Assembly: GCF_000526155.1 (NCBI RefSeq)
Contig: NZ_JAFN01000001.1
Span: forward strand, 1,605,014 to 1,637,013
Length of the DNA: 32,000 bases
Direction: 5' to 3'
Source: Deferrisoma camini S3R1
GTDB lineage: Bacteria; Desulfobacterota; Deferrisomatia; Deferrisomatales; Deferrisomataceae
This document shows, in pieces, positions 3,080-17,787 of this stretch; position 1 is the stretch's first letter; every line of letters starts with the position of its first letter. The position numbers were made by a program, and so were the translations under genes. Below the pieces are notes generated by a model that was not told where the DNA came from, ran no database searches, and was given only the letters and a program-made list of their open reading frames with translations.

Positions 3080-3096
3080 TGGCACGACCCCTGCAT
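3080..3096 (+). promoter_or_regulatory. sigma54 (-24/-12) promoter
   Basis: TTGGCACGACCCCTGCAT. GG is at 3081-3082 and GC at 3093-3094, which is the exact 12-nt register. It matches TGGCAC-N5-TTGCA with one mismatch. It lies about 60 nt upstream of the ppsA-like ATG (3155), and an NtrC-type activator is encoded at 21587-23047. Confidence 0.7.
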
Positions 3097-3154
3097 CCCT
3101 TCGCTCCCACCGGTTTTCTGTGTTTCGGTCCCCCTGGAAAAAAGGAGGCACACC

Positions 3155-4996
3155 ATGGCGAACGGCGGCGGCTTTCCCAGTCCCCACGACGTCTTCACGA
3201 TCCCCGGAACCGAGGGGTGGGAGCGGATGTACCCCTACCATTACCGGTTCGGGGCCGACGATCCCGAGCGCAAGGAGTACGAGGCGTCGATGTTCTGGTT
3301 CTACGACGGCCTCCACTACCCGGAACCGATCTACCCCTTCGACATGATCTGGGACGAGGCGTGGTTCCTGGCCCTGTCCCAGTACAACACCCGGATCTTC
3401 ATCGTGCCCCCCGCCCTGGGTGTGGACCACCGCATCATCAACGGCCGCATCTACATCACCCCGGTGCCGGTGAAGGACCCGTCCGAGATCCCCGCCCGGG
3501 TCGAGCATTTCATGAAGCGGGCCGGGTACTACTACGAGAACTGGGACGAGCTCTACGCCAAGTGGGAAACCAAGATGAAGGGTGTGATCGAGGAGCTGGA
3601 CAAGCTCACGATCCCCGAGCTGCCCGACATGGAGGAGGACTCGGTCGTGTTCGACGCCGTGGGCCGGAGCAGCGGCTACGAGCTGCTCACCGCCTACGAC
3701 CGGCTCATCCAGCTCGGCATCCTGGCCTGGCAGTACCACTTCGAGTTCCTGAACCTGGGGTATGCGGCGTACGTGACGCTCCTGGACTTCTGCCAAAAGG
3801 CCTTCCCCGGGATCCCCCTGCAGCGGGTCACCCAGATGGTCAGCGGCATCGACGTGATCCTGTACCAGCCCGACGAGGAGCTCAAGGGCCTGGCCCGCCT
3901 GGCCTGCGAGCTGGGCATCGAGGACGAGATCCTCGTGGAGCGCTCGGTGGAGGAGCTGTTCGAGGAGCTCAAGAAGACGAACGACGGCCGCCTGTGGGAG
4001 CAGCGGTTCGAGAAGGCCAAGTACCCCTGGTTCTACATCTCCACCGGCACGGGCTGGTTCCACCACGACCCGGCCTGGATCGACGAACTGGAGATCCCCC
4101 TGAGCTCCATCCGCATGTACATCCAGAAGCTCAAGAAGGGCGAGTCCCTGGAGCGGCCCCTGGGTGAGCTCAAGCGGGAGCGGGACCGGATCATCTCGGA
4201 GTACCGGGAGCTGCTGGGCTCGGACGACGACCGGGAGATGTTCGACAACTTGGTGGGCACGGCCCAGAGGGTGTTCCCGTACGTGGAGAGCCACCTGTTC
4301 TACGTGGAGCACTGGTTCCACTCGATCTTCTGGAACAAGATGCGCGAGGTGTCGCGCCGCTTCGTGACGGCCGGGTTCTGGGACGACGTGGAGGACATCT
4401 GGCTCCTGAACCGCCACGAGATCAAGCAGGCCATGTGGGACATGGTCACCGCGTGGGCCACCGGCACCCAGCCCATGGGCAGGCTCCACTGGGGACCGGA
4501 GATCGCCTGGCGCAAGCAGGTGATGGAGAAGTTCAAGGAGTGGACGCCCCCTCCGGCCGTGGGCACCCCCCCCGAGACGATCACCGAGCCGTTCACCATC
4601 GTGCTGTGGGGCATCACGAGCGAGACCATGGCCGCCTGGTCCAAGGGCAAGGAGGCCGGCGAGGGCCCGGTGCGGGAGCTCACCGGGTTCGCGGGAAGCC
4701 CCGGCGTGGTGGAGGGCCCGGCCCGGGTCTGCCGCACCGTGTCCGAGATCTCCACGCTGCAGGACGGCGAGATCCTGGTGTGCCCCACCACGAGCCCCAG
4801 CTGGGCGCCGGCGTTCACCAAGATCAAGGCCGCGGTCACCGACGTGGGCGGCATCATGTGCCACGCCGCCATCGTGTGCCGGGAGTACGGGCTGCCCGCC
4901 GTGGTGGGCACGGGCAACGCCACCCAGGCGTTCAAGACCGGTCAGAAGATCCGTGTGGACGGCAACACCGGCGTCGTCTCGATCGTCGAGGAGTAG
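3155..4996 (+). CDS. ppsA: Phenylphosphate synthase subunit A-like protein (PEP-utilizing enzyme, phosphohistidine swivel domain; 613 aa, about 70 kDa)
   Basis: AAAGGAGG SD. The C-terminus GSPGVVEGPARV...ILVCPTTSPSWAPAFTKIKAAVTDVGGIMCHAAIVCREYGLPAVVGTG is the PEP-utilizer mobile His domain. There is no ATP-grasp part. The size and architecture match the 70-kDa subunit described for Thauera aromatica phenylphosphate synthase. Context: ppsB-like and ppc-like genes nearby. Confidence 0.8.
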   Translation: MANGGGFPSPHDVFTIPGTEGWERMYPYHYRFGADDPERKEYEASMFWFYDGLHYPEPIYPFDMIWDEAWFLALSQYNTRIFIVPPALGVDHRIINGRIYITPVPVKDPSEIPARVEHFMKRAGYYYENWDELYAKWETKMKGVIEELDKLTIPELPDMEEDSVVFDAVGRSSGYELLTAYDRLIQLGILAWQYHFEFLNLGYAAYVTLLDFCQKAFPGIPLQRVTQMVSGIDVILYQPDEELKGLARLACELGIEDEILVERSVEELFEELKKTNDGRLWEQRFEKAKYPWFYISTGTGWFHHDPAWIDELEIPLSSIRMYIQKLKKGESLERPLGELKRERDRIISEYRELLGSDDDREMFDNLVGTAQRVFPYVESHLFYVEHWFHSIFWNKMREVSRRFVTAGFWDDVEDIWLLNRHEIKQAMWDMVTAWATGTQPMGRLHWGPEIAWRKQVMEKFKEWTPPPAVGTPPETITEPFTIVLWGITSETMAAWSKGKEAGEGPVRELTGFAGSPGVVEGPARVCRTVSEISTLQDGEILVCPTTSPSWAPAFTKIKAAVTDVGGIMCHAAIVCREYGLPAVVGTGNATQAFKTGQKIRVDGNTGVVSIVEE

Positions 4997-4999
4997 GGA

Positions 5000-6100
5000 A
5001 TGAGCCGAAAAGACATCGCGTGGTTCGAGGAGTGTCGCAAGGACGACACCCCGCTGGTGGGGGGCAAGTGCGCCAGCCTCGGGGAGCTGCTCGCGGCCGA
5101 GATCCGGGTGCCGCCCGGGTTCGCCGTGACCACCGAGGCCTACTACCACTTCCTCACCCGGGCCGGCATCAAGGAGCCCATCTGCAAGGTGCTGCGCCGC
5201 ATCCGCGACGGGGTGCCGGTGCACGAGGTCGGTGAGGAGACCCGCCGCATGGTGCTGGAGGCCCCGATCCCCGCGGAGGTGGAGGCAGGCATCCGGGCCT
5301 CCTACCGGGCCCTGTGCGACCGGTGCGGGGTGGAGGACCTGCCGGTGGCCGTTCGCTCCAGCGCCACCCTCGAGGACATGGCGGACGCCTCCTTTGCCGG
5401 TCAGCAGGACACCTACCTCTGGGTCCGAGGGGAGGACGAGGTGGTGGACAAGGTCAAGCGCTGCTGGGCCAGCCTGTTCAGCGACCGGGTCATCGCCTAC
5501 CGGGAGGAGAAGGGGTTCACCCACGAGAACGTGCGGATCTCGGTGGGCGTCCAGAAGATGGTCCGGGCCCGGACCTCGGGGGTCCTGTTCACCCTGAACC
5601 CGGTGAACGGCGACCGCTCCAAGGTGGCCATCAACGCCGCCTGGGGCTTTGGCGAAGGGGTGGTCTCGGGCGACATCACCCCCGACGACTTCCTGGTGGA
5701 CAAGGTCACCTTCGACATCTTGCGGCGCACCGTGGTGCCCAAGCCCGAGGCCTACCTGCTGGACCCAGCGGCAGGACGGGTGTGCCGGATGGGGGTGCCC
5801 GAGGCCGACCGGGCCAAGCCTTCCCTGTCGGACGACGAGATCCAGGAGCTCACCCGGCTCGCCCGCCGGATCGAGAAGCACTACGGCCGGCCCATGGACG
5901 TGGAGTGGGCCGTGGACGCCGACCTCCCCTTCCCGGAGAGCATCGTGACCCTCCAGGCCCGGCCGGAGACGGTGTGGTCCCAGAAACCGGCCCGAACCGT
6001 GGCGAAGGAGAAGCCCAAGTCGGCCCTGGACGCCATCGTGGGCAAGCTGCTGGCCGGGGTGCCGGTCCAGAACAAGGCCCAGACCGTGGGGGGCGTGTGA
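5000..6100 (+). CDS. ppsB: Phenylphosphate synthase subunit B-like protein (PEP synthase N-terminal ATP-binding domain; 366 aa, about 40 kDa)
   Basis: Starts 4 nt after the ppsA stop. The N-terminus WFEECRKDDTPLVGGKCASLGELLAAEIRVPPGFAVTTEAYYHF and the motif VAVRSSATLEDMADASFAGQQDTYL are the PPDK_N/PEP-synthase nucleotide-binding signature. Confidence 0.8.
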   Translation: MSRKDIAWFEECRKDDTPLVGGKCASLGELLAAEIRVPPGFAVTTEAYYHFLTRAGIKEPICKVLRRIRDGVPVHEVGEETRRMVLEAPIPAEVEAGIRASYRALCDRCGVEDLPVAVRSSATLEDMADASFAGQQDTYLWVRGEDEVVDKVKRCWASLFSDRVIAYREEKGFTHENVRISVGVQKMVRARTSGVLFTLNPVNGDRSKVAINAAWGFGEGVVSGDITPDDFLVDKVTFDILRRTVVPKPEAYLLDPAAGRVCRMGVPEADRAKPSLSDDEIQELTRLARRIEKHYGRPMDVEWAVDADLPFPESIVTLQARPETVWSQKPARTVAKEKPKSALDAIVGKLLAGVPVQNKAQTVGGV

Positions 6101-6546
6101 AAACCGATTCCGCCTCGGCCCGCCCCCAGGGGGCACCGGTGCGGATCGAAGGGGTGGTCTCCTCGGGCAGGGGCGAGGCGGCGGGGTTCGTGGACCTCCC
6201 CTGGGTGGTCGAACAGGTGCGGGAACGGGCGGGGTTCCGCCCGTTCCCGGGCACCCTGAACATCCTGGTGCGCGATCCCGCTTCCCTGGCGCGGTGGCAA
6301 CGGGTCCGCCGGGTTCCGGGGTTCCTCCTGGAGCCCGGCGACCCTTCCTTTTGCTCGGCCGCCTGCTACCCGGTGCTCGTGGCCGACCGGGTTCCCGGCG
6401 TGATCGTGCGTCCCCACATCCCCTCCTACCCCGAAGGCCTGGTCGAGGTGCTCGCGGCCACGTGCCTCCGACAGGAGCTCGGCCTGCGGGACGGGGACCG
6501 GTGCTCCCTGGCCTTATATCAATTTGCGATCAAGATGAGCTCATAG
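6097..6546 (+). CDS. Archaeal-type (CTP-dependent, DUF120/RibK family) riboflavin kinase homolog, 149 aa
   Basis: The GTG start at 6097 overlaps the ppsB stop (GTGTGA). VRIEGVVSSGRGEAAGFVDLPWVVEQVRERAGFRPFPGTLNILV and GVIVRPHIPSYPEGLVEVLAATCLRQELGLRDGD align motif for motif with Methanocaldococcus MJ0056 RibK as I remember it (IEGEVVSGLGEG..F...GFEPYEGTLNLKL ... GAIVVP..T.H...IIEIIAP.KLRE.F.LKDGD). The last ~10 codons (LYQFAIKMSS) are encoded by the MITE-like element that begins at 6512. Confidence 0.8.
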   Translation: MKTDSASARPQGAPVRIEGVVSSGRGEAAGFVDLPWVVEQVRERAGFRPFPGTLNILVRDPASLARWQRVRRVPGFLLEPGDPSFCSAACYPVLVADRVPGVIVRPHIPSYPEGLVEVLAATCLRQELGLRDGDRCSLALYQFAIKMSS

Positions 6547-6741
6547 GGGGGCGATTTGGGGACCGTTGGTCCTCCGCCGGAGAAGACGGCCTAGCCGAAG
6601 CCGCTACGGCTCGGTCTGCTGCGGCGCGTGAGAGCACGCGCCGCGGGCGCTCCCCTGCGCCGAGCGGCTTGAACGGCTCGGCCGGAGCGCTCCGGGCCAA
6701 CGGCCCCCAAATCGCTGGCTTCGGATGCGACCTGGCATTAC
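6512..6741. mobile_element. Foldback MITE-like element, family B, copy 1
   Basis: 230 bp. It is near-identical in inverted orientation to 20277-20505. Termini are CCTTATATCAATTTGCGATCAAGATGAGCTCATAGGGG and, in revcomp, GTAATGCCAGGTCGCATCCGAAGCC. The interior is a long imperfect palindrome (GCGATTTGGGG.CCGT.GGTCC arms; central CTGCGGCGCG-N8-CGCGCCGCGG with one mismatch; the copy at 20277-20505 has perfect CTGCGGCGCG/CGCGCCGCAG arms). Confidence 0.75.
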
Positions 6742-6768
6742 ACCCCCGTTGACCCGAGGAGGGGTTCC

Positions 6769-7464
6769 ATGGTCCGGTGCGTGCTGTTCGATCTGGAGGG
6801 AACGCTCGTGGACTTCCAGTGGAAGCTGGAAGAGGCCGAGGCCGAGCTGCGCCGGGCCGCAGCCGGGGTTCTGGGATGCGGCCCAGAGCGGTTCGCCGGC
6901 TTGAACTACGCGGGCATCTGGGAGGCCGCGATGGAGGCGGGCTCCCCGGCCCTGCGCGCCCGCATGGAGCAAACCCTGGGGCCCATCTACGACCGGTACG
7001 ACCTGGACGCCGCCACTCGCTGGACCCTGCGGCCGGGCGCCGCCCCGGTGCTCACCCGGCTCCGGGAGCTCGGAGTCCCCACGGCCCTCGTGACCAACGT
7101 GGGCCGTAGGGCGGCAACCCACATCCTGAGCCGGCTGGGCATCGATCGGCAGTTCGGGGTGGTGGTGACCCGAAACGACGTGGCTCGGATGAAGCCTGCC
7201 CCCGACGGCATCCGTAAGGCTCTCGACGCCCTGGGCACGACCGCGACCGAGGCCCTGATGGTGGGGGACAGCCTCTCCGACATCGGGGCCGCCCGGGCCG
7301 CCGGCTGCCGGGTGGCCATCGTGCTGGGGGGCGAGAGCACCGAGGCGGCGATCCGGGCCGCCCGGCCCGACCTGGTGCTGACCGACCTGCGGGAGGTCGT
7401 GGGTTCGCTCTGCGAGCCGCTGGAATGCCGGAAAGCCGGAAGGCCAAAAGCCCAAAGCTATTGA
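6769..7464 (+). CDS. HAD-superfamily hydrolase (phosphoglycolate-phosphatase-like subfamily IA), 231 aa
   Basis: GAGGAGGGG SD. Motif I is VLFDLEGTLVD, so the second acidic residue is Glu rather than Asp. Motif II is ALVTN, motif III is RMKPAPDG and motif IV is VGDSLSDIGAA. The 3' end (7419-7464) is made of GCYGGAAR octamers plus a MITE fragment. Confidence 0.85.
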   Translation: MVRCVLFDLEGTLVDFQWKLEEAEAELRRAAAGVLGCGPERFAGLNYAGIWEAAMEAGSPALRARMEQTLGPIYDRYDLDAATRWTLRPGAAPVLTRLRELGVPTALVTNVGRRAATHILSRLGIDRQFGVVVTRNDVARMKPAPDGIRKALDALGTTATEALMVGDSLSDIGAARAAGCRVAIVLGGESTEAAIRAARPDLVLTDLREVVGSLCEPLECRKAGRPKAQSY

Positions 7465-7534: not shown

Positions 7535-7616
7535 ACCCCAAGCCCCCCTGGGCTTTGGCGCGGTTCGAGAGCCGCCTGGCCGCCTAGCTGCCTAACCGCC
7601 CAGCCGCTTGGCCCCC

Positions 7617-8498
7617 CTAGCTTTCCTCCAGGATCTCCAGGAACGCCTGCGCGGCAGGGGAGAGCACGTCCGGCTCCGGGCACACGATGAACACGTCGAG
7701 CCACAGGCGCTCGTCCCGGAGCGGGATCTCCACCACCTTCCCCGCCCTCAGCTCCTCCTCCACGGCGCACCGAACCAGAAACGAGACCCCCTCCCCCCGG
7801 GCCACCACGTCCTTGATGAACTCCAAATTGCTGGTTTCCACCAGCACCTTGGGCGACACGCCGTGCCGCCGACAGGCGCCGCGCACCAGGGTGCGGGTGG
7901 TCGAGCCCTCCTCCTTGAGGACCATCAGCTCCCCCGCCAGCTCCGAAAACCCCACCTCTCCCCGGCCCGCCAGGGGATGGCCCGGGGCGGCGAACAGCAC
8001 CACCTCCTCCCTCCGGAACGGAACGCACCGCAGTCCCCGGACCGGTTCGGCCAGACCCACCACGGCCATCTCGCTGCGGCCTTCGACCACCGATCGAACC
8101 ACCGCCGCGGACGCCCCCTCGTCCAGCACGATCCGGATCCCGGGGTATGCGGCGTGGAACCGGCCCAGGATGTCGGGCATGACGTACCGGGCGTACGTCT
8201 TGGTGGTGCCCACCTTGAGCAGCCCCTGCCGCACGGTCCGGAGCTCCTCCACGAGCCCCTCGATCTCCCTCTCCAGAGCGAACACCCGCTCGGCCTGCCG
8301 GAACACGAGGGCCCCGGCCTCGGTCAGCACCATGTTCCGACCCCGACGTCGGAACAGGCGAAGCCCCAGGGCCTCTTCCAGGGCCCGGATCTGCCCCGAC
8401 ACGGCCGGCTGGGTGACGCACAGGGCCTCCGCCGCCCGAGTGAAGCTTCCGCTCCGTGCGGCCTCGTAGAACGTTCGTAACTGGTTGAAGTTGAGCAT
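7617..8498 (-). CDS. LysR-family transcriptional regulator (293 aa)
   Basis: ORF 7617..8861 trimmed to the ATG at 8498. The N-terminal wHTH MLNFNQLRTFYEAARSGSFTRAAEALCVTQPAVSGQIRALEEALGLRLF is followed by a LysR substrate-binding domain. The gene is divergent from the UbiD-type operon. No obvious SD. Confidence 0.9.
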   Translation of the reverse strand: MLNFNQLRTFYEAARSGSFTRAAEALCVTQPAVSGQIRALEEALGLRLFRRRGRNMVLTEAGALVFRQAERVFALEREIEGLVEELRTVRQGLLKVGTTKTYARYVMPDILGRFHAAYPGIRIVLDEGASAAVVRSVVEGRSEMAVVGLAEPVRGLRCVPFRREEVVLFAAPGHPLAGRGEVGFSELAGELMVLKEEGSTTRTLVRGACRRHGVSPKVLVETSNLEFIKDVVARGEGVSFLVRCAVEEELRAGKVVEIPLRDERLWLDVFIVCPEPDVLSPAAQAFLEILEES

Positions 8499-8505
8499 GG
8501 CAGTA

Positions 8506-8599
8506 ACGGGTGACGGGTGACGGGTGACGGGTGACGGGTGACGACCTGCGACCTGCGACCTGCGACCTGCGACCTGCGACCTGCGACCTGCGACCTGCG
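8506..8599. repeat. Two abutting heptamer tandem arrays: 5 x ACGGGTG (8506-8540) and 8 x ACCTGCG (8544-8599)
   Basis: Perfect copies counted directly from the sequence. They lie between the LysR start codon and the candidate LysR box, inside the divergent promoter region. Confidence 0.95.
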
Positions 8600-8608
8600 A
8601 CCAACAGC

Positions 8609-8623: not shown

Positions 8624-8712
8624 ACATCAGCGCAAAACATATGATTGGACCCCGCCTCCACCGGGCGCTAGAGTCGCAACCCATCAAACGATTTTTTGCG
8701 AAGGAGGGAGAC

Positions 8713-10128
8713 ATGGACCTCAGGGACTTCATCGCCCGCTGCGAGGAAGAGGGGCAGCTCAAGCGGATCGGCGCCGAGGTGGACTGGGACCTGGAGCTCA
8801 GCCACGTGGCCAAGCTCGTGGAAGAACAGGAGGGGCCGGCCCTCCTGTTCGAGAACGTCAAGGATTACGACAGCCCCGTGTTCACGGGTGCGTTCGCCAC
8901 CACCCAGCGGCTGGCCCTGGCCCTGGACAAACCCACCCATCTGAGCCTGTGCGAGCTCACCCGCGAGTGGATGAAGCTCGCGGTGGACAAGATCATCCCG
9001 GCCCAGGAGGTGGAGTCGGGACCGGTGTTTGAAAACGAGTACAGCGGCGACGACGTGGACATCTTCCGGTTCCCCTCGCCCCGGTTCTTCGAGAAGGACG
9101 GCGGCCGCTACATCGGCACGGCCGTGTTCCTGGTGACCCGCGACCCCGAGACCGGCGGGATCAACCTGGGCACCTACCGCATGCAGGCCCAGGAGAAGAA
9201 CCGCATCGGGGTCCAGATCCTCAAGGGCAAGCGGGGCGACCGCATCCTGAAGAAGTACAAGAAGGCCGGGCAGAAGATGCCCGCCTGCGTGGTGATCGGG
9301 TGCGATCCCCTGCTCATGCTCGCGGGAAGCGCCATGGTGGCCAAGGCCAGCGAGTACGACGTGGTGGGGTCGCTCCGGGGCGAGCCGGTCACGGTCACCC
9401 AGGGCAAGGTCACCGGCCTTCCGATCCCGGCCGACGCGGAGATCGTGCTCGAGGGCTGGATCGACCCCGACGATCTGCGGCCCGAGGGGCCCTTCGGCGA
9501 GTACACCGGGTACTACACCGACGAGCTGTTCCACCCCATTCCCAAGCCCTCCATGGTGGTCGAACGCGTGTACCACCGGAACAAGCCGATCCTGTGGGCC
9601 ACGTCGGTGGGCCGCCCGGTCACCGACAACCATTGGATGCTGGCGTTCGTGCGCGGGGCCACCCTGTGGACCGAGCTGGAGAAGATGCGGATCCCCGGGA
9701 TCGAGTCGGTGTACCTGCCGCCCGAGGCCTGCGGCCGGTTCTGGGCCATCGTGAGCGTGCGCCAGATGTACCCCGGCCACGCCAGCCAGGTGGCGGCCGC
9801 GGTGGTGGCCAGCAACACCTGCACCTACGGCACGAAGGGGGTGATCGTGGTGGACCACGACGTGCGCGCCGACGACCTGCCCCGGGTCTGGTGGGCCCTG
9901 GCCACCCGTTTCGACCCGGCCCGGGACACCCAGATCATCCAGCGCGGCCGCTCCACGCCCTTGGACCCGGCCCTGGACCCCGACTCCAACAAGCTCATCA
10001 CCTCCCGCATCCTGCTGGACGCCACCGTTCCGTTCGAGTGGGAGCAGAAGCCGGTGGAGGTGGCCCTGGTGCCCGAGGTGGTGGAGCGGATCAAGAAACG
10101 CTGGAAGGAGCTGGGGCTGGACGACTGA
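8713..10128 (+). CDS. UbiD-family (prFMN-dependent) carboxylase, phenylphosphate carboxylase alpha/beta-type subunit (471 aa)
   Basis: ORF 8641..10128 trimmed to the ATG at 8713, preceded by AAGGAGGGAG. Contains MDLRDFIARCEEEGQLKRIGAEVDWDLELSHV, GGINLGTYRMQ and the active-site loop EGPFGEYTGYYTD, all typical of UbiD. The ~53 kDa size fits PpcA/PpcB. Confidence 0.85.
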   Translation: MDLRDFIARCEEEGQLKRIGAEVDWDLELSHVAKLVEEQEGPALLFENVKDYDSPVFTGAFATTQRLALALDKPTHLSLCELTREWMKLAVDKIIPAQEVESGPVFENEYSGDDVDIFRFPSPRFFEKDGGRYIGTAVFLVTRDPETGGINLGTYRMQAQEKNRIGVQILKGKRGDRILKKYKKAGQKMPACVVIGCDPLLMLAGSAMVAKASEYDVVGSLRGEPVTVTQGKVTGLPIPADAEIVLEGWIDPDDLRPEGPFGEYTGYYTDELFHPIPKPSMVVERVYHRNKPILWATSVGRPVTDNHWMLAFVRGATLWTELEKMRIPGIESVYLPPEACGRFWAIVSVRQMYPGHASQVAAAVVASNTCTYGTKGVIVVDHDVRADDLPRVWWALATRFDPARDTQIIQRGRSTPLDPALDPDSNKLITSRILLDATVPFEWEQKPVEVALVPEVVERIKKRWKELGLDD

Positions 10129-11230: not shown

Positions 11231-12679
11231 ATGGCGTACCGCTACTACAAGGACAACCGCGAGTTCATCGAGGCCCTGCGGGCCACCGGAGACCTGGTCA
11301 CGGTGGAGCCCGAGGTGGACTGGGACCTGGAGCTCGGGGCCATCGTCCGGCGGGTGTGCGAGCTCCAAGGCCCGTCGCCCCACTTCAAGAAGATCAAAGA
11401 CTACCCCGGCTTCGAGGCCCTGGGCGCGCCCTTGGCCACCTACCGGAAGCTGGCGGTGTCCCTGGGGCTTCCGGCCGACACCCCGATCCCGGAGATCGGC
11501 AGGGCCTATGTGGAGCGCACCGAGCGGGGCGAGCCCCTCAAGCCCAGGGTGGTGGACCGCAGCCGGGCCCCGTGCAAGCAGAACGTGTGGACGGGCGACG
11601 ACGCCAACCTGTTCAACCTGCCCGCGCCCATGGTCCACGACGGCGACGGCGGCCGGTACCTGGCCACCTGGCACATGGTGGTGGCCAAGGACCCGGACAC
11701 CGGCGAGGTGAACTGGGGCATGTACCGCCAGATGGTGTTCGACGAGAAGACCATGGTGGGCCCGGTGCTGCCGTTCTCCGACATGGGCAAGATGTTCTTC
11801 AACAAGTACGTGCCCCGAAACCAGCCCATGCCGTTCGCCACGGTGATCGGCATGGACCCGCTATCCGGCGTGGCCGCCTGCGCGCCCTCGCCGATCCCGG
11901 AGGACGAGTTCGCGAGCCTCCTCATGGGCGAGGCGGTGGAGGTGGTGAAGTGCGAGACCTCGGACCTGCTGGTGCCGGCCCACGCCGAGATCATCATCGA
12001 GGGCGAGGTGCTGCCGGGCGTCTGGCTCGAGGAGGCGCCGTTCGGGGAGTACACCGGCTACCGCACCTCGCCCCGGGAGCGGCGCACCGTGTACCGGATC
12101 CGGGCGATCACCTTCCGGGACAACCCGATCCTCACCGTGTCGAACATGGGCGTGCCCACGGACGAGGGCCAGCTCCTACGATCGTTCTCCCTGAGCCTCG
12201 AGATGGAGAAGCTCCTGCGTAGCCAGGGCATCCCGATCACCGGCGTGTACATGTGGCCCGAGTCCACCCACCACATGGTGGTGATCGGCACCCGCCACGC
12301 CTACACGGGCATCGCCCATCAGATCGCCAACCTGGTGTTCGGCAGCAAGCTGGGCCCCTGGTTCCACATGGTGGTGGTGGTGGACGAGAACACCGACATC
12401 TACAACAAGAACCAAGTGATCCACGCCCTGGCCACCCGGTGCCATCCGGTCAACGGCATCCACATCTACGAGAACGACGTGGGAACTCCCTTGAACCCCT
12501 ACGCCACCCCGGCCGAGCGACGCCTGGGCAAGGGCGCCAAGGTGCTGTTCGACTGCCTGTTCCCGCGGGACTGGCAGCCCTCTGACATCCCGATCCTGGT
12601 GGCGTTCGACACGGTCTACCCCCAGGAGGTCCGGGACAAGGTGTTGGCCAACTGGAAGGCATACGGGTTTTCCGAATAA
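11231..12679 (+). CDS. UbiD-family carboxylase, second phenylphosphate carboxylase alpha/beta-type subunit (482 aa)
   Basis: Contains FIEALRATGDLVTVEPEVDWDLELGAIVRR, NWGMYRQM and EAPFGEYTGYRTS. It is a paralog of 8713-10128. Confidence 0.85.
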   Translation: MAYRYYKDNREFIEALRATGDLVTVEPEVDWDLELGAIVRRVCELQGPSPHFKKIKDYPGFEALGAPLATYRKLAVSLGLPADTPIPEIGRAYVERTERGEPLKPRVVDRSRAPCKQNVWTGDDANLFNLPAPMVHDGDGGRYLATWHMVVAKDPDTGEVNWGMYRQMVFDEKTMVGPVLPFSDMGKMFFNKYVPRNQPMPFATVIGMDPLSGVAACAPSPIPEDEFASLLMGEAVEVVKCETSDLLVPAHAEIIIEGEVLPGVWLEEAPFGEYTGYRTSPRERRTVYRIRAITFRDNPILTVSNMGVPTDEGQLLRSFSLSLEMEKLLRSQGIPITGVYMWPESTHHMVVIGTRHAYTGIAHQIANLVFGSKLGPWFHMVVVVDENTDIYNKNQVIHALATRCHPVNGIHIYENDVGTPLNPYATPAERRLGKGAKVLFDCLFPRDWQPSDIPILVAFDTVYPQEVRDKVLANWKAYGFSE

Positions 12680-12964: not shown

Positions 12965-13219
12965 ATGGCTGAATACGACGCGTTTTTCGAGAACCTGCAG
13001 GAGGTCCCCCAGGACGAGGAGATCCGCCTCGTGATCCGGGACCTCACCCCGGGCCGGACCAAGTACCGGTGCCAGGTGGTCCGGGCCCAGGTGTCGAGTG
13101 AGCCTTCCAAGTACCCGGAAAGGCTGTGGCCCCGCCTGGGCCGGGGGCAGTGGGTGGGCGAGCCCTGGTCGATCCGGGTGGTGGAGGAGGTGGACCCCAT
13201 CCCGGAAGCGTGGCGGTAG
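12965..13219 (+). CDS. Small protein (84 aa, about 10 kDa), candidate phenylphosphate carboxylase gamma subunit
   Basis: TAAGGAG SD and strong GC3 bias. Its size and its position directly after the UbiD-type subunits fit the 10-kDa subunit of the Thauera enzyme. I cannot verify sequence similarity from memory. Confidence 0.5.
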   Translation: MAEYDAFFENLQEVPQDEEIRLVIRDLTPGRTKYRCQVVRAQVSSEPSKYPERLWPRLGRGQWVGEPWSIRVVEEVDPIPEAWR

Positions 13220-13232
13220 GGGAGCACGGATC

Positions 13233-14576
13233 GTGGCGTTCCGCGACCTGACCGGGGTGCTGGAGTTCCTCCGGGCCACCGGCCGCCTGGCGGAGGTGGG
13301 GGGCCCCGTGTCGGTGCGACACGAGGTGGCGGCCCTACTCCACGTGGCGTCCCGGCAGCATCGAGCCGTGCACGTGGGTCGGACCGACCGGGGCCCGCTG
13401 CCGGTGGTGGGGAACGTGCTGTGCCACGACGAGGTCCTGGCCCTCGGCCTGGGCGTGCCCTCGGAGCAGGCCGGCCGCGCGTTCGTGGAACGGTGCACCG
13501 CCGAGGTCCCGCCGCGAACCGGGACCGACGGCCCCGTGCTCGAACGTTCGATCGAGCCGGCAGAGATCGGGGAGTTTCTGCCCGTGCTCACCCACTACGA
13601 GGGCGACTCCGGGGCGTTCCTCACCACGGCCGTTGTCTCGGCCGTGGATCCCCGCACCGGCGCCGTGGCCCGGGGCGTCCACCGCATGGAGCAACGGGGA
13701 CCGGATCGGTTCGGCGTAGCCCTGCTGAACCCGCCCCTGTCCGATGTGTACGCCCAGGCCAGGGCGGCGGGCCGGCCCCTGGCGGCCGCTGTGACCCTGG
13801 GGCACGAGCCGCTCACCTTTCTCGCCGCAGCCCTCAAGGGGCGCGCCGGCGAAGACAAGATGGCCGCGGCCGGCGCCCTGCGGGGGGAGCCCGTGGACCT
13901 GGTGAGCGCCCCCCACACCGGTATCCCGGTGCCGGCCGAGGCCGAGATCCTGCTGGAGGGCGAGATCGACCCCTCGGACGAGCGCCCGGACGGCCCGTTC
14001 GGGGAGATCAGCGGGTACCACGTATCGTTTTCCGCCACGCCCACCTTCGTGGTGAAATCGGCCCGGTGCCGGCAGAGCCCCCTGTACCACGCCCTCCTCC
14101 CCACCGGGTGGGAGGCCGACCGGCTCCTGGGCATGGTGGCCGAAGCGTCGGTGCAGGCCCTGGTCGGTCCGGCGCCGGTCGAGGTCACGGCGGTCCGGGC
14201 CGTCCCGTTCTCGTACGGGGCTTCGGTGGTGGTCCGGCTCGCTCCGGCAACGCCGGACCGGATCCGGGCGTTCCTGGAGATCCTGCTGCGCGAGACCCGG
14301 GTGAAGCAGGTGGTGGCCGTGGCCGAGGACGTGGACGTGGAAGATCCCTGGGACGTGGAGTGGTCCGTAGTGAGCCGCAGCCAGCCCGATCGGGACTGGG
14401 TGATCCTGCCGGGCCTCCGGGGCCAGCCCATCGACCCTTCGGCCCACGAGCACGCGGTCACGGCCAAGGCGGCCGTGGACGCCACCGGGTACCACCGGGT
14501 ACCCGGACGGCGGGCTCGGGTGCCCCAAGGGGCCCTGGAGCGGTGCCGGGCGTTCCTGACGAGGAGAGAGCGATGA
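13233..14576 (+). CDS. Divergent third UbiD-family decarboxylase/carboxylase paralog (447 aa)
   Basis: GTG start at 13233 with a GGGGAG SD 8 nt upstream; the ORF track frame is 13098..14576. Contains LEFLRATGRLAEVGGPVSVRHEVAALL, GVHRMEQ and DGPFGEISGYHVS. It is clearly more diverged than the other two paralogs. Confidence 0.75.
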   Translation: MAFRDLTGVLEFLRATGRLAEVGGPVSVRHEVAALLHVASRQHRAVHVGRTDRGPLPVVGNVLCHDEVLALGLGVPSEQAGRAFVERCTAEVPPRTGTDGPVLERSIEPAEIGEFLPVLTHYEGDSGAFLTTAVVSAVDPRTGAVARGVHRMEQRGPDRFGVALLNPPLSDVYAQARAAGRPLAAAVTLGHEPLTFLAAALKGRAGEDKMAAAGALRGEPVDLVSAPHTGIPVPAEAEILLEGEIDPSDERPDGPFGEISGYHVSFSATPTFVVKSARCRQSPLYHALLPTGWEADRLLGMVAEASVQALVGPAPVEVTAVRAVPFSYGASVVVRLAPATPDRIRAFLEILLRETRVKQVVAVAEDVDVEDPWDVEWSVVSRSQPDRDWVILPGLRGQPIDPSAHEHAVTAKAAVDATGYHRVPGRRARVPQGALERCRAFLTRRER

Positions 14577-15169
14577 GTGCACCCCGCAGAATGGTGGTTG
14601 GCATCTCCGGGGCCACCGGCCCCCAGTACGGCATTCGGCTCCTGCAGGTGCTGGGAGAGCTCGGCGTGGAGACCCATCTGGTCCTCTCCAAGGCCGCCCG
14701 GCGAAACATCCGGCTCGAGAGCGACTGGACCCCGGAGCGGGTGGAGGCCCTAGCATCCAAGGTCTACGACCCCGAGGACGTGGGCGCGGCCATCGCCAGC
14801 GGATCGTTCCTGACCGAGGGAATGGTGGTGGCCCCCTGCTCGGTCAAGACCGCCTCGGCCATCTCCAACTCGTACAACGACAACCTGCTGGTGCGGGCGG
14901 CCGACGTGACCCTGAAGGAGCGCCGGCCCCTGGTCCTGCTGTTCCGGGAGACCCCGCTGCACAAAGGGCACCTGGACATCCTCCGCCGGTGCGCCGACAT
15001 TGGGGCGGTGATTCTGCCGCCCATGGTGGCCTTCTACCACCGCCCCCGGACGGTGGAGGAGATCGTGGACCAGACCGTGGGCAAGGTGCTCGACCAGCTC
15101 CGCATCGAGCACAACCTGTTCCGTCGCTGGAAGGGCAGCGACGTGAAGGTGCTGTCGGCGGGAGGATGA
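14573..15169 (+). CDS. ubiX: Flavin prenyltransferase UbiX (prFMN synthase), 198 aa
   Basis: The ATG overlaps the upstream stop (ATGA). Contains RMVVGISGATGPQYGIRLLQVL, MVVAPCSVKTASAISNSYNDNLLVRAADVTLKERRPLVL and RETPLHKGHL, which are canonical UbiX/Pad1 motifs. Confidence 0.95.
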   Translation: MSAPRRMVVGISGATGPQYGIRLLQVLGELGVETHLVLSKAARRNIRLESDWTPERVEALASKVYDPEDVGAAIASGSFLTEGMVVAPCSVKTASAISNSYNDNLLVRAADVTLKERRPLVLLFRETPLHKGHLDILRRCADIGAVILPPMVAFYHRPRTVEEIVDQTVGKVLDQLRIEHNLFRRWKGSDVKVLSAGG

Positions 15170-15230
15170 GCCCCTTGGGCCTTCGGCCCGCTGGACGGCT
15201 CCCCCGCCGCGCCGAAGCTCAGTGAGGCCT

Positions 15231-15306
15231 GGGGCCTGGTTCCGGCCGTGCGTGAGTGCCGAATGCAGCGACTGCAGGAGCCACGCCCGGCGCTCCACCA
15301 GGCCCC
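15231..15306. repeat. Internally deleted family-A element fragment (inverted relative to copy 2)
   Basis: GGGGCCTGGTTCCGGCCGTGCGTGAGTGC...GCAGCGACTGCAGGAGCCACGCCCGGCGCTCCACCAGGCCCC is the revcomp of 17701-17739 joined to the revcomp of 17542-17583. Confidence 0.7.
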
Positions 15307-15393
15307 AGGCCTCCCCGACTTGTGGCGTCGGCGCAGCGCTCAGAGATCGCGGAGGTTTTTGGCTTTCCAGCTTCCTAGCCTCGGAGAGGACCT

Positions 15394-16737
15394 ATGCCGT
15401 ACCCGGAAACCGAGTACTGGAACCCGATCACCGAGACCCTGGACCCGGACCGGCTCCGGGAGATCCAGCTGGCCAAGTTCCGGCGGGTGTTCGCCTGGGT
15501 ATACGAGCGAAGCCCCATGTATCGCCGCAAGTACGACGAGGCCGGCCTTCGGCCGGAGGACGTGCGGACCTGGGACGACCTGGCCAAGGTGCCCCTGGTG
15601 ACCAAGGACGACTACCGATGCCAGGGCGCGGACCCGTTTCCCTACGGCGACACCCTGTGCGTGCCCCTGGAGGAGGTGACCGAGTACCACCAGACCTCGG
15701 GCACCACCGGCACCCCCGTGTATCAGCCCGACACCTGGGCCGACTGGGAGTGGTTCTCGGAGCTCTGGGCCACGATCCTGTGGGCCCAGGGGTACCGGCC
15801 CACCGACCGGGTGTTCTTCCCCTTCGGGTACCACGTGTTCATCGCCTTCTGGACCGCCCACTACGGGGCCGAGAGGCTCGGGTGCGAGGTGGTCCCCGGC
15901 GGGGTGCTGGGCACCCGGGAGCGGCTGCTCAAGATGCGCGAGCTCAAGACCAACGCCTTCATGGCCACCCCCACCTACGTACTGGGCATGGCCGAGACCG
16001 CGCGCAAGGACCTGGGCGCCGACCCCCGGGAGTGGGGCATCGAGCGGATCACATGCGCCGGGGAGCCTGGGGCCTCGGTTCCAACGACGAAAAAGCGGAT
16101 GCAGGACGCCTGGGGCTGCCCCGTGTACGACCACGTGGGCGCCACCGAGGTCGGCGCCTGGGGGTTCGAGTGCCGGCACCAGCCCGGGGGCCAGCACGTG
16201 ATCGAGTCCATGTTCCTGGTGGAGCTCCTGGAGTTGGATGCGGATCGGCCCGTGACCCGGCCCGGGGTGCCGGGACGGATCGTGATCACCGCCTTCGACC
16301 GGAGGGCCCAGCCGTGCGTGCGGTTCGACACCAAGGACGTGTCCATGTGGGCCGCGGACGGATGCGGGTGCGGCCGCACCTGGCGGATCCTCGAAGGTGG
16401 GGTCCACGGCCGGGTGGACCACATCACCAAGGTGAAGGGGGTGCTGTTCTCCCCGGTCACCGTGGAGGAGGTGGTCCGATCGTTCGAGGAGCTGGACGGC
16501 GAGTTCGAGATCTTCGTGGAGAAGCGGGGGGACCTGGATCACATCACCCTCAAGGTGGAGCTGCCCGACGGACTGGCCCCGCCGGACCGGGACAACCTAC
16601 TCAAGGAGCTGGCCAGCCGGCTCCGGTGGAAGACCCAGCTCAACTTCGACATCCAGCCCCAGCCCTACGGCAGCCTGCCGCGCTACCAGGTCAAAGCCCG
16701 CCGGTTCCACGATCTTCGCAAGAAGGGAGGCGTGTAA
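15394..16737 (+). CDS. PaaK-family adenylate-forming aryl-acid CoA ligase (phenylacetate-CoA ligase / F390 synthetase family), 447 aa
   Basis: Contains LREIQLAKFRRVFAWVYERSPMYRRKYDEAGL, VPLVTKDDYR and the P-loop-like HQTSGTTGTPV. The ~50 kDa size is typical of PaaK and shorter than benzoate-type ligases. Confidence 0.85.
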   Translation: MPYPETEYWNPITETLDPDRLREIQLAKFRRVFAWVYERSPMYRRKYDEAGLRPEDVRTWDDLAKVPLVTKDDYRCQGADPFPYGDTLCVPLEEVTEYHQTSGTTGTPVYQPDTWADWEWFSELWATILWAQGYRPTDRVFFPFGYHVFIAFWTAHYGAERLGCEVVPGGVLGTRERLLKMRELKTNAFMATPTYVLGMAETARKDLGADPREWGIERITCAGEPGASVPTTKKRMQDAWGCPVYDHVGATEVGAWGFECRHQPGGQHVIESMFLVELLELDADRPVTRPGVPGRIVITAFDRRAQPCVRFDTKDVSMWAADGCGCGRTWRILEGGVHGRVDHITKVKGVLFSPVTVEEVVRSFEELDGEFEIFVEKRGDLDHITLKVELPDGLAPPDRDNLLKELASRLRWKTQLNFDIQPQPYGSLPRYQVKARRFHDLRKKGGV

Positions 16738-16922
16738 TGGCTCCGGACGATCGGATCCGCGAGGTGGCCGAGGCGTTGGACCGGGTGGCCTCGGCGTTGA
16801 GGGAACTGGAGCGGGCCGGAGACGGCATCCCGGCGGTGGAGCGGAACGTGCGCCGGATGGAGGGGACCCTGTGGGTGCTCCGGGCCCACTTCGAGCCGCC
16901 TGCCAGGGCGGAAACGCCGTAG
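16737..16922 (+). CDS. Hypothetical small helical protein (61 aa), translationally coupled to the ligase
   Basis: The ATG overlaps the ligase stop (TAATG). A GGGAGG SD lies 6 nt upstream. GC3-rich. No recognisable motif. Confidence 0.5.
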   Translation: MAPDDRIREVAEALDRVASALRELERAGDGIPAVERNVRRMEGTLWVLRAHFEPPARAETP

Positions 16923-16945
16923 CCCGGCCCGACGGGCCCGTTCCC

Positions 16946-17494
16946 ATGGAGGTCCATTTCGGGCACCGGGTGTCCCGGGAGGGGTGGTGGAGCTTCGAGA
17001 CCCACCCCCACATGGTGCGCACGAAGCGCCGCATCCACGAGCGGTGCCTGCCGTGCCTCGCCGGGCTGCTGGATCAGCTGAAGACGGACCGGAGGGAGAT
17101 CGACCTGCCCCATGCCTGGGACTGCTGGAAGGTGGTGGCCGTGGCCCCGGACGAGGCGACCTGCATGGAGATCCTCGACCGGCTGGCCGAGGACCACCCG
17201 GACCTATACCTCCACGGCAAGCTGGGGGGCCGGCGGGATCGCTACGGGACCTCGGCCCTGGTCCTCCACGCCGAGGGGGAGGCCGAGCGGGACCGGCTGG
17301 TGGGCTGCCTGCGAAAGACATTGGAACACCATTTCCCGCAGGTACCCCTCCAGCTCTCCCGGGCCTGCGCCGACCCCTACGCCGAGCTCCTGGGCCCCTG
17401 GCAGGACTGGACCCTGCCGTGCCCCATTCGGCACCCGGAGGCGGTGCCCCGGGTGGTTCGGCGGCTGCGGGAGCTCCTTTACGGCGCGGGCTGA
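16946..17494 (+). CDS. Hypothetical protein (182 aa), Cys/His/Trp-rich, unknown function
   Basis: ORF 16871..17494 trimmed to the ATG at 16946 (MEVHFGHRVSREGWW...). Strong GC3 codon bias throughout. Weak SD. No family recognised. Confidence 0.5.
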   Translation: MEVHFGHRVSREGWWSFETHPHMVRTKRRIHERCLPCLAGLLDQLKTDRREIDLPHAWDCWKVVAVAPDEATCMEILDRLAEDHPDLYLHGKLGGRRDRYGTSALVLHAEGEAERDRLVGCLRKTLEHHFPQVPLQLSRACADPYAELLGPWQDWTLPCPIRHPEAVPRVVRRLRELLYGAG

Positions 17495-17782: not shown

Positions 17783-17787
17783 AGGGG

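Follow-up and report, generated by a model that had tools for sequence, protein, structure and literature searches.

The window, that is, the whole 32,000-nt stretch of DNA analysed, carries an island whose core, judged from its sequence, is a complete Thauera-type set: a split phenylphosphate synthase and a four-subunit phenylphosphate carboxylase encoded in the order beta, delta, alpha, gamma. The gene ppsA (3155-4996, + strand) encodes the predicted phosphohistidine/substrate subunit (613 aa, 70.4 kDa). Its sole Pfam match is the PEP-utilizers mobile domain (PF00391, residues 536-606), the motif GGIMCHAAIVCREYG begins at residue 565 and contains His570, and no ATP-grasp part was found in the Pfam domain search, in agreement with the first-pass annotation of a PEP-utilizer phosphohistidine protein lacking an ATP-binding part. 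PpsA also scores 987 bits against NF006152 (cut-off 723), an unnamed NCBIfam family. The predicted ATP-binding subunit is encoded by ppsB (5000-6100, +; 366 aa, 40.4 kDa), which follows after a spacer of 3 nt rather than the 4 nt given earlier. The PEP-synthase N-terminal homology proposed for PpsB was borne out, as the protein matches PPDK_N (PF01326, 384 bits) and aligns with PEP synthase models over their first 350 residues.

The carboxylase genes begin with ppcB (8713-10128, +; 471 aa), for the beta subunit, and include ppcA (11231-12679, +; 482 aa), for the alpha subunit. Both UbiD-family products pass their NCBI equivalogs, TIGR02724 for PpcB (694 bits, cut-off 469) and TIGR02723 for PpcA (690 bits, cut-off 565). 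The ppcB start at 8713 was picked by ribosome-binding site and ortholog length; the longest open reading frame, used in the first-pass annotation, begins at 8641. The delta gene, coding for a KdsC-like HAD subunit (10468-11010, +; 180 aa), lies between beta and alpha, a position kept in all relatives. Delta scores 146 bits against TIGR02726, which is under the cut-off (282) and nearly the same as its KdsC score (143). Gamma (12965-13219, +; 84 aa, 10.0 kDa) matches Phenyl_P_gamma (PF09662; 61 bits, cut-off 25) and falls under the cut-off of TIGR02725 (63 bits against 136). Comparison with the NCBIfam equivalog models for Ppc subunits places alpha and beta above cut-off, but delta and gamma below. 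The earlier description of two UbiD proteins of about 470-480 aa, with a 180-aa KdsC-like protein between them and an 84-aa protein after them, stands. So does the proposed likeness to the Thauera subunit inventory: the computed masses of 70.4 and 40.4 kDa for the synthase and 54.1, 52.7, 19.8 and 10.0 kDa for the carboxylase compare with 70/40 kDa and 54/53/18/10 kDa in Thauera (PMC6114531).

Several genes farther downstream had been overlooked, among them, within 3080-17494, a third UbiD gene, ubiX and two small open reading frames. The third UbiD-family paralog (13233-14576, +; 447 aa; UbiD_N, UbiD and UbiD_C) stays below every NCBIfam equivalog cut-off and precedes UbiX in all relatives. 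The AEIxxEG motif, which carries the catalytic glutamates of UbiD proteins, is kept in all three paralogs (AEIVLEG in PpcB, AEIIIEG in PpcA and AEILLEG in the third). The start of ubiX (14573-15169, +; 198 aa) overlaps the stop of this gene, and its product passes the flavin prenyltransferase models TIGR00421 (244 bits, cut-off 109) and NF004685 (253 bits, cut-off 188). A PaaK-like aryl-CoA ligase follows (15394-16737, +; 447 aa; PF14535 and PF00501). It scores 228 bits against TIGR02155, under the cut-off of 646, and is a candidate 4-hydroxybenzoate-CoA ligase. The ligase had been recognized before but regarded as not textbook, a view contradicted by its counterparts in Thauera aromatica (ORF14) and Desulfatiglans anilini (the phenol-induced gene 02049) (PMC6114531); a similar gene also stands beside ppsA in other Desulfobacterota. 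Next come a conserved 61-aa frame (16737-16922, +), identical by tblastn at 64% to a frame of L087/L088 and at 51% to one of L089, and a conserved 182-aa orphan protein with a CLPC motif (16946-17494, +), which aligns with proteins of L087, L089 and L090. Only five homologs of the orphan were found, and a fold comparison of its AF2 model (pLDDT 90) with the PDB gave no match below E=0.01. The first-pass annotation had likewise missed a gene for a Phenol_MetA_deg outer-membrane protein (20500-21525, +; PF13557, 226 bits), as well as a histidine kinase described below.

Regulation and the GHMP-fold protein

At a distance of 60 nt, ppsA is preceded by a sigma54-type -24/-12 promoter, TGGCACGACCCCTGCA (3080-3095, +; TGGCAC-N5-CTGCA), with one mismatch to TGGCAC-N5-TTGCA. 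Its elements are kept in L001, L083, L082, L048 and L002, with a spacer of varying length. A LysR-type regulator gene (7617-8498, -; PF00126 and PF03466) diverges from ppcB, an arrangement kept in L081, L089, L090 and L001, and the intergenic region contains a conserved palindromic box. Farther downstream, the window encodes a cytoplasmic PAS sensor histidine kinase (17788-18900, -; PAS, HisKA, HATPase_c) and an NtrC-type sigma54-dependent response regulator (21587-23047, +; Response_reg, Sigma54_activat, HTH_8). The pps operon would be transcribed from the sigma54 promoter, presumably driven by this kinase and regulator, and the ppc operon would be paired with the LysR regulator. Dual control, as suggested in the first-pass annotation, is thus upheld by the LysR gene and the conserved promoter; sigma54 control as such is not a departure, since it has already been described for Aromatoleum (PMC10715001). 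The NtrC-type gene is real but lies outside 3080-17494, where it had been placed.

The same correction applies to the GHMP-fold protein (19137-20279, +; 380 aa), which we assign by profile and AF2 to the ForT/beta-RFAP-synthase clade of GHMP-fold C-ribosyltransferases. Its family profile matches ForT (6yqq) over positions 39-357 with E=9e-24, and its AF2 model (pLDDT 91) gives TM-scores to ForT of 0.66/0.76. Despite this full-length profile and predicted-fold match, the protein is far below the beta-RFAP synthase cut-off (NF040726; 53 bits against 328), and its gene lies, within a phenol island, between those of the sensor kinase and the regulator, an arrangement that recurs in L087-L090.

Predicted pathway and its substrate

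By homology and context, PpsB would transfer an ATP-derived phosphoryl group to His570 of PpsA, and PpsA would pass it to phenol, giving phenylphosphate. The UbiD-type alpha and beta subunits, with the small gamma and the HAD-type delta, would then cleave off the phosphate and add CO2 para to the oxygen, yielding 4-hydroxybenzoate, which would be converted to 4-hydroxybenzoyl-CoA, probably by the PaaK-like ligase. No genes for 4-hydroxybenzoyl-CoA reductase or the benzoyl-CoA pathway were found in the window; because of this, a complete catabolic route is unproven. In addition, phenol as the PpsA substrate is a context-based assignment because the NCBIfam family of PpsA is unnamed. The substrate range, also among phenolic compounds, is not readable from sequence, and aniline (via phenylphosphoamidate), catechol, hydroquinone or a cresol might take the place of phenol. 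The third UbiD paralog, below all equivalog cut-offs, would fit such a substrate, and aniline use in D. anilini involves a homologous synthase and UbiD-type proteins (PMC7500099). Nevertheless, the models that PpcA and PpcB pass were derived for the enzyme acting on phenol, there is a gene for a Phenol_MetA_deg channel, and the island has both gamma and delta, which the D. anilini aniline system lacks (PMC7500099). A substrate other than phenol is therefore improbable, and the aniline option raised in the first-pass annotation is disfavoured. On the other hand, its assignment of a phenylphosphate synthase and carboxylase island is supported by the PpcA and PpcB equivalogs and the PF09662 match of gamma, accompanied by the ligase and the phenol-type channel.

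The same island order adjoins tgt in five related genomes (L001, L083, L081/L087, L048/L089 and L090). Since the arrangement is syntenic in these genomes, it is not due to chance, and the synteny spans Deferrisomatales (Thermodesulfobacteriota). The island represents a known pathway in a new lineage, with a modestly novel accessory module. With T. aromatica and Aromatoleum aromaticum it shares the split synthase of 70 and 40 kDa subunits, the four carboxylase subunits (54, 53, 18 and 10 kDa), an extra UbiD paralog, UbiX, a PaaK-like ligase (ORF14) and a sigma54 promoter. Unlike those organisms, its host belongs to a Deferrisomatales-related lineage of Thermodesulfobacteriota, the one-component PheR is replaced by a two-component PAS kinase/NtrC pair plus LysR, and DUF120 and HAD genes follow ppsB in place of the CBS-type PpsC. 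Clusters of the Desulfatiglans anilini/Geobacter type resemble the island in that ppsA-ppsB is linked with ubiX and with genes for a PpcB-like UbiD protein and a PaaK-like ligase, and in having no PpsC in the cluster; they lack clustered alpha, gamma and delta, whereas the island has the full set of four.

The DUF120 and HAD-IA pair

The GTG start of the DUF120 gene (6097-6546, +; 149 aa) overlaps the ppsB stop. Its product is a CTP-dependent riboflavin-kinase-like protein (PF01982, 94.5 bits) that matches structures of archaeal riboflavin kinases (3cta and 2p3m) and keeps the kinase motifs GxGE, PGTLN and E-x-x-A; against the ribK_Meth equivalog it scores 50 bits, under the cut-off of 168. 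The domain and the glycine-rich, PGTLN and C-terminal Glu motifs are common to the archaeal enzyme (MJ0056), but the island protein is bacterial, lacks the wHTH extension, and belongs to a group whose members are encoded next to, or fused to, hydrolases of the HAD or NUDIX type. The partner here is a HAD-IA phosphatase (6769-7464, +; 231 aa; PF00702 and PF13419) whose motif I, D-L-E-G-T, is invariant among orthologs. The two genes form a single 355-aa frame in L048, and the fusion also occurs in the representatives P0134 and P0172. The closest 150 cluster representatives of DUF120 include 36 multidomain proteins, with HAD in 26, an FMN-binding PNPOx-like domain in 2-3 and an IDI-2-type FMN_dh in one. 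We regard the two predicted proteins as one functional pair, a separately encoded version of a flavin enzyme with two domains that is widespread in bacteria; the phosphatase, noted earlier as an extra HAD enzyme, is present as reported but is no separate oddity. The absent clustered PpsC, the PaaK-type ligase and the sigma54 control are each known in other phenol clusters or lineages and so are not unusual; the only real oddity of the island is the pairing of a riboflavin-kinase-like gene with one for a phosphatase.

What the pair does can be approached through its neighbourhoods. In Deferrisoma, the interval between ppsB and LysR holds genes for a flavin reductase, DUF120, a type-2 IPP isomerase (298 bits against TIGR02151, cut-off 281) and HAD; the window itself has no flavin reductase, IDI-2 or NUDIX genes. 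LysR-DUF120-HAD adjoins ppsAB-ppcB in L160. Elsewhere, DUF120 stands with UbiX and IDI-2 (L117), with UbiX (L139 and L155) or beside UbiD genes (L096, L094, L109, L135 and L166), and NUDIX homologs occur in 10 further Desulfobacterota pps/ppc loci. Both HAD fusion, so common in bacteria, and one such fusion adjoining ApbE among DnaB and HflX genes (L120) mean that the pair may belong to general flavin metabolism, as a housekeeping riboflavin kinase and flavin phosphatase found in the island by chance. This is quite unlikely, as the pair is part of the sigma54-controlled pps operon in all Deferrisomatales genomes seen, and DUF120 accompanies pps/ppc or UbiX/UbiD in at least ten independent metagenomic loci out of 80, a set in which 44 are at least 5 kb long. 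Chance would give about 1% by a rough estimate that was not computed, a level far exceeded here.

A role linked to the synthase would also agree with the position of DUF120 directly after ppsB, which is the same in two distant lineages. In the unrelated low-GC lineage L107, the genes after ppsA-ppsB are a DUF120-NUDIX fusion and then ppcB-delta-A-gamma, and domain and profile searches found no CBS/AcuB-like gene in the window. DUF120 could then be a new third synthase component in place of PpsC, the CBS-domain protein stimulating the Thauera synthase; the first-pass annotation had rightly located a RibK homolog in this slot. We consider this role unlikely. The protein has no similarity to CBS proteins and matches riboflavin kinase over its full length; in Deferrisoma, its gene and ppsB have that of a flavin reductase between them; it occurs without pps genes beside UbiX/UbiD in L117, L139, L155 and L096; and its usual fusion partners are HAD, NUDIX or FMN-binding domains. 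Moreover, about 70 related Desulfobacterota loci have only ppsAB-ppcB, with no gene between ppsB and ppcB, and the best PpsC match of D. anilini is unlinked and only 25% identical, a clustered PpsC being normally absent outside Thauera/Aromatoleum. Neighbourhoods and fusions point instead to flavin/UbiX chemistry, and a PpsC substitute formed by DUF120 and HAD is disfavoured.

From gene context, the pair most likely provisions FMN/prenyl-FMN for the UbiD-type carboxylase. DUF120 and HAD-IA would raise or buffer the FMN pool, UbiX would prenylate FMN to prFMN, and prFMN would serve the three UbiD-family proteins that the island would yield in large amounts; the HAD substrate may be FMN, a riboflavin precursor or DMAPP. 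In sister genomes, the flavin reductase/PhdC-like gene, the type-2 IPP isomerase as DMAPP source and, in one, a NUDIX hydrolase would complete a cofactor-supply line. HpaC-like flavin-reductase-fold proteins such as PhdC can act as prFMN maturases (PMC13040415), and in Escherichia coli the UbiX substrate DMAP is produced by Nudix hydrolases (PMC12359138). PhdABC with the PhdC maturase, the LpdD chaperone and the E. coli Nudix/ThiM DMAP routes are likewise cases of extra genes near UbiX/UbiD, whose products help to make or mature prFMN (PMC13040415, PMC10865409, PMC12359138). The candidate helpers of the island would act further upstream, as an FMN-forming kinase and a phosphatase, with IDI-2 in sister genomes; our literature search found no publication on this combination. 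Altogether, we give a probability of roughly 60% to the whole reading, in which phenol is phosphorylated and carboxylated and DUF120/HAD-IA supply FMN/prenyl-FMN.

Repeats and insertions

Two repeat features were also observed. The DUF120 gene has at its 3' end a MITE-like insertion of 215 nt (6516-6730) that is absent from L001, L083 and L084. A duplication of roughly 9-10 bp (CCTGGCnTTA) flanks the insertion, which has an inverted copy, 90% alike, at 20279-20505. The LysR-ppcB intergenic region contains perfect heptamer arrays, (ACGGGTG)x5.4 and (CGACCTG)x8.7 (8506-8602); at this site, Deferrisoma L081 has only single related copies, and the sequence of L001 is different.

A predicted complete phenylphosphate synthase and carboxylase set in Deferrisomatales

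Judged from its genes, the phenol island of Deferrisoma camini represents an established pathway, new to Deferrisomatales and here in its full four-subunit form. The G+C content of the window is 63-74% per kilobase and raw ORF lists are therefore crowded with shadow frames, so that genes were called from third-position GC, family searches, and comparison with relatives. All the features listed in the first-pass annotation are present in the sequence. It had placed them within 3080-17494; the GHMP and NtrC-type genes lie outside this range, and a third UbiD paralog and UbiX, both inside it, had been overlooked.

The gene order starts with tgt (before 3080, minus strand). The ppsA gene (3155-4996) codes for a protein with the PEP-utilizers mobile domain (PF00391) as sole domain match, with His570 within GGIMCHAAIVCREYG and without an ATP-binding part. 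After a 3-nt spacer, not 4 nt as previously noted, ppsB (5000-6100) codes for a stand-alone protein matching PPDK_N (PF01326) only. The split architecture of the putative synthase is thus confirmed: a phosphohistidine protein of 70.4 kDa lacking the ATP-binding part, and a separate ATP-binding protein of 40.4 kDa. The Thauera synthase subunits have been reported at 70 and 40 kDa (PMC6114531). No gene in the window has a CBS match that could represent the CBS/AcuB-like 24-kDa PpsC after ppsB, and this slot is indeed occupied by the riboflavin-kinase-like (DUF120) protein. PpsC is dispensable for the synthase. It has a stimulatory effect on the Thauera synthase reaction (PMC6114531). The missing PpsC, previously regarded as unusual, is equally a trait of most non-betaproteobacterial clusters.

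The carboxylase assignment held when the proteins were compared with equivalog models. PpcA (11231-12679) scored 690 bits on the alpha model TIGR02723 (cut-off 564.6) and PpcB (8713-10128) 694 bits on the beta model TIGR02724 (cut-off 469), both with much lower scores on each other's model and on those for UbiD, VdcC, and menaquinone. The start of ppcB is most likely at 8713: this position has an RBS and gives a protein that agrees in length with its orthologs. Gamma (12965-13219) passed PF09662 (Phenyl_P_gamma; 61 bits, cut-off 25) and scored 63 bits on the stricter TIGR02725, below its cut-off of 136. Delta (10468-11010) reached 146 bits on TIGR02726 (cut-off 282) and thus fell short of this model, with a nearly equal score of 143 for KdsC. 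The assignment as delta relies on gene position: all relatives have this gene between those for beta and alpha. The computed masses of 54.1, 52.7, 19.8, and 10.0 kDa (the last being gamma) bear out the Thauera-like inventory noted earlier, as the subunits of the Thauera carboxylase are reported at 54, 53, 18, and 10 kDa (PMC6114531). The third UbiD paralog (13233-14576) is followed by UbiX (14573-15169), which passed both TIGR00421 (244 bits, cut-off 109) and NF004685 (253 bits, cut-off 188). All three UbiD paralogs have the AEIxxEG motif, which we take to carry the catalytic glutamates of UbiD enzymes. There is no solved structure of either phenol-system enzyme for comparison.

Substrate and ligase

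Aniline had been offered as an alternative substrate. The characterised aniline system of Desulfatiglans anilini has neither gamma nor delta (PMC7500099), and both are present here. Because of this difference, the island is better read as a putative activation and carboxylation system for phenol or a close phenolic compound. Family searches found no 4-hydroxybenzoyl-CoA reductase in the window.

The ligase (15394-16737) is PaaK-like rather than PaaK, to judge from its 228 bits on the PaaK equivalog TIGR02155 (cut-off 646). The view that such a ligase is not textbook does not hold: homologs with 59-61% identity adjoin ppsA in six other loci, and ORF14 of Thauera aromatica is of this type, its best D. 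anilini match being the phenol-induced 'phenylacetate-CoA ligase' 02049, a proposed 4-hydroxybenzoate ligase (PMC6114531). The accessory genes are in part standard: nothing is unusual about the ligase, the third UbiD paralog, UbiX, or sigma54 control. A 61-aa ORF that overlaps the ligase stop (16737-16922) is conserved in the island and belongs to no family. The 182-aa protein coded downstream (16946-17494) is kept across the island relatives, with a CLPC motif and further Cys and Trp residues invariant; it has only five detectable homologs, no family, and no significant fold match.

Conservation and distribution

PpsA is 99% identical to its counterpart on a 'Deltaproteobacteria' MAG contig (L001) and 83% to those on Deferrisomatales and Deferrisoma contigs. 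Gene order is shared from tgt to NrdD with Deferrisoma sp. (L081/L087) and a Deferrisomatales bin (L048/L089); a further Thermodesulfobacteriota MAG (L090) shares it from LysR onward. Tblastn located the ligase of L089 at the end of its contig, on the opposite strand. Some 70 further Desulfobacterota loci (L004-L080), with PpsA 64-70% identical, show ppsA-ppsB-ppcB with UbiX and often LysR. No matches to alpha, gamma, or delta were found in these loci, which belong to Desulfomonilaceae, Syntrophaceae, Syntrophobacteraceae, and others. They agree with the reduced 'strict anaerobe' type known from D. anilini (PMC6114531), whereas the window has the full four-subunit set. The island would place a complete Thauera-type carboxylase in Deferrisomatales, which are thermophilic and strictly anaerobic, while most related strict anaerobes have the reduced set. 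Our literature search found no report connecting Deferrisoma or its lineage with phenol use.

Of the 70 or so Desulfobacterota loci, 10 have NUDIX homologs and 9 have HAD-IA homologs. The Deferrisomatales bin has five sulfur/redox genes inserted between its DUF120-HAD fusion and LysR (L048 12823-18605 and L089 1-515): a pyridine-nucleotide-disulfide reductase with a rhodanese domain, a nitrite/sulfite-reductase-like protein, an AprA/fumarate-reductase-like flavoprotein, a ferredoxin, and one unknown.

A recurrent, probably flavin-related module

The genes between ppsB and LysR code for the DUF120 protein (6097-6546) and a HAD-IA phosphatase (6769-7464), formerly listed as two separate items, a RibK homolog and an extra HAD. 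Both are present; we consider them one unit, because they are joined in sister genomes, in unrelated lineages, and in fusions. The DUF120 protein passed PF01982 (94.5 bits, cut-off 25) and aligns along its length with archaeal riboflavin kinases (3cta, MJ0056), keeping the glycine-rich, PGTLN, and C-terminal Glu motifs. It scored 50.5 bits on the ribK_Meth equivalog NF040694, below the cut-off of 168, and those of its relatives that carry a name come from Deferrisoma. Scanning the window for Rfam families and tRNAs gave no matches, and there is no FMN riboswitch.

In the sister Deferrisoma genomes, the interval from ppsB to LysR contains a flavin reductase, DUF120, a type-2 IPP isomerase (IDI-2; TIGR02151, 298 bits vs 281), and HAD. 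In the Deferrisomatales bin, the flavin reductase is followed by a single 355-aa DUF120-HAD fusion (L048), and a NUDIX gene is added after UbiX (L089). A metagenome scan with the DUF120 profile retrieved loci from unrelated lineages. One of 43% GC (L107) has ppsA-ppsB, a DUF120-NUDIX fusion, an XylR_N/V4R regulator, and ppcB-delta-A-gamma, and another (L160) has ppcB-ppsB-ppsA divergent from LysR-DUF120-HAD. The order CoxE-XdhC-DUF120-UbiX-IDI-2 is found in L117, DUF120-UbiX in L139 and L155, and DUF120 adjoining UbiD genes in L096, L094, L109, L135, and L166. Moreover, we surveyed the 150 closest cluster representatives from a search of 1.84 billion proteins. Multidomain DUF120 proteins account for 36 of them, with a HAD domain in 26, in either domain order. 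Others of the 36 carry an FMN-binding PNPOx-like domain (2-3 cases) or an FMN_dh domain that reads as IDI-2 (P0170). In two representatives (P0134, P0172), the HAD domain is of the unusual subtype found in the window (motif I D-x-E-G-T-L-V-D-F-Q-W). Rarer fusion partners among the representatives P0085-P0230 are an MFS transporter (P0096), a glyoxalase-fold domain, and an LMW phosphatase.

These three lines of context tie the pair to flavin/UbiX chemistry, and not to the synthase. Our results indicate that DUF120 with HAD or NUDIX, at times with IDI-2 and flavin reductase, is a recurrent and undescribed flavin-related module. The literature search found no paper in which genes for riboflavin kinase, IDI-2, or flavin reductase are described as partners in UbiX clusters. 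UbiX uses reduced FMN and dimethylallyl phosphate as substrates. E. coli obtains dimethylallyl phosphate by Nudix hydrolysis of DMAPP or through ThiM (PMC12359138), and prFMN maturases can be HpaC-fold flavin-reductase-like proteins such as PhdC (PMC13040415). The NUDIX partners resemble NudE-type ADP-compound hydrolases, for which FAD and DMAPP are both possible substrates. A role of the HAD as a DMAPP-to-DMAP phosphatase, analogous to NUDIX, was at first favoured. We downgraded it because DUF120-HAD fusions are widespread and also occur outside UbiX contexts, as in L120, where the fusion adjoins ApbE, DnaB, and HflX genes. Plants have a fused FMN hydrolase/riboflavin kinase. With this precedent and the L120 context, a flavin is at least as likely as DMAPP to be the HAD substrate.

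The simplest reading is that the pair may form part of a cofactor supply line for the UbiD-family proteins of the island. The phenol island would produce three such proteins in quantity and carry its own cofactor support, in which DUF120 would make FMN and HAD would act in the same flavin pathway. The sister genomes would add FMN reduction or maturation, together with DMAPP formation. Bacterial DUF120 'riboflavin kinases' and their HAD/NUDIX partners are now connected to UbiX/UbiD systems in several lineages. These genes are testable candidates for prFMN supply or maturation in strict anaerobes, which is an open question (PMC13040415), and could aid heterologous expression of UbiD-type carboxylases.

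Regulation and the GHMP protein

A sigma54-type promoter with -24 GG and -12 GC elements (TGGCAC-N5-CTGCA, 3080-3095; TGGCACGACCCCTGCA) lies 60 nt upstream of ppsA. Both elements are kept, with a variable spacer, in L001, L083, L082, L048, and L002, a pattern that reads as a phylogenetic footprint. An NtrC-type regulator, that is, an enhancer-binding protein, is coded at 21587-23047. LysR (7617-8498, minus strand) and ppcB point away from each other, and the region separating them contains a conserved palindromic box. Given the conservation of the promoter footprint and of the palindromic box, the dual control by LysR and sigma54 put forward earlier is reasonable. Its sigma54 part is hardly outside the textbook, as this control was already described for Aromatoleum (PMC10715001). 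Two perfect heptamer arrays, (ACGGGTG)x5.4 and (CGACCTG)x8.7, stand back-to-back at 8506-8602, in the stretch that separates the LysR start from the conserved LysR box preceding ppcB. Deferrisoma relatives have single related copies only at this site, and the arrays are possibly a length-variable promoter spacer.

Downstream of the 182-aa ORF are a PAS histidine kinase (17788-18900, minus strand), the GHMP protein (19137-20279), a Phenol_MetA_deg outer-membrane protein (20500-21525), and the NtrC-type regulator, followed by NrdG/NrdD, an ECF sigma factor, thioredoxin, peroxiredoxin, a nitroreductase, and an epimerase. In all four relatives, the GHMP gene comes between the genes for the PAS kinase and the sigma54 regulator, and L090 keeps it with no ligase nearby. 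The protein is tied in this way to the regulators of the island. It is not a generic kinase and appears ForT-like by profile and predicted fold. Its GHMP family profile matched ForT along its full length, with E=9e-24 over positions 39-357, next to a partial homoserine kinase match (6.5e-14), and ForT was the closest structure to its AF2 model (pLDDT 91) by TM-score (0.66/0.76). ForT is a PRPP-dependent C-ribosyltransferase of the beta-RFAP-synthase type; the GHMP protein scored 53 bits on the beta-RFAP synthase equivalog NF040726, short of the cut-off of 328.

Enzymes of the beta-RFAP synthase class use para-substituted benzoates, with decarboxylation, and accept 4-hydroxybenzoate. By analogy, 4-hydroxybenzoate could be speculated to be a substrate of the GHMP protein. 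It seems quite improbable that the protein converts 4-hydroxybenzoate and PRPP, with loss of CO2, into a C-ribosylated phenol phosphate serving either as the true inducer, sensed by the PAS kinase, or as entry to an undescribed anaerobic phenol branch. More distant GHMP homologs are found in unrelated gene contexts. Homologs with 41% identity (L091, 10001-13785) lie in an operon with PRAI (TrpF-like), a zinc alcohol dehydrogenase, and a DeoC-type aldolase, which suggests that this branch of the family serves another pathway. A sigma54-like site upstream of the GHMP gene (19080-19095) was discounted, as it has two mismatches and a broken -12 GC and is only partly conserved.

Shadow ORFs and repeats

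The ORFs at 6294-6752, 7608-8480, 13335-14756 (minus strand), 17626-19140, and 22828-23955 have no family matches and were rejected as shadow ORFs of a 68% GC genome. A repeat of 215-227 nt occurs as an inverted pair (6516-6730 and 20279-20505; 90% alike). The copy at 6516 is flanked by a duplication of about 9-10 bp, alters the last few codons of the DUF120 gene, and is missing in the closely related L001, L083, and L084; the element behaves like a MITE. Several further families of intergenic repeats, of 45-154 nt, occupy the gaps in the ppc operon and around tgt, which are unusually long (798-951/12759-12912, 10338-10476/11101-11239, 2511-2588/2841-2918, and 1018-1223/2586-2793/7480-7524/17525-17569). 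In the gap between ppcA and gamma, L001 has a different element from the window, and the repeat-bearing gaps look like insertion hot spots. Finally, tandem copies of the 14-nt unit TCGGTCTACGGTCG occur in two intergenic regions far apart from each other, at 2445-2493 and 24136-24168.
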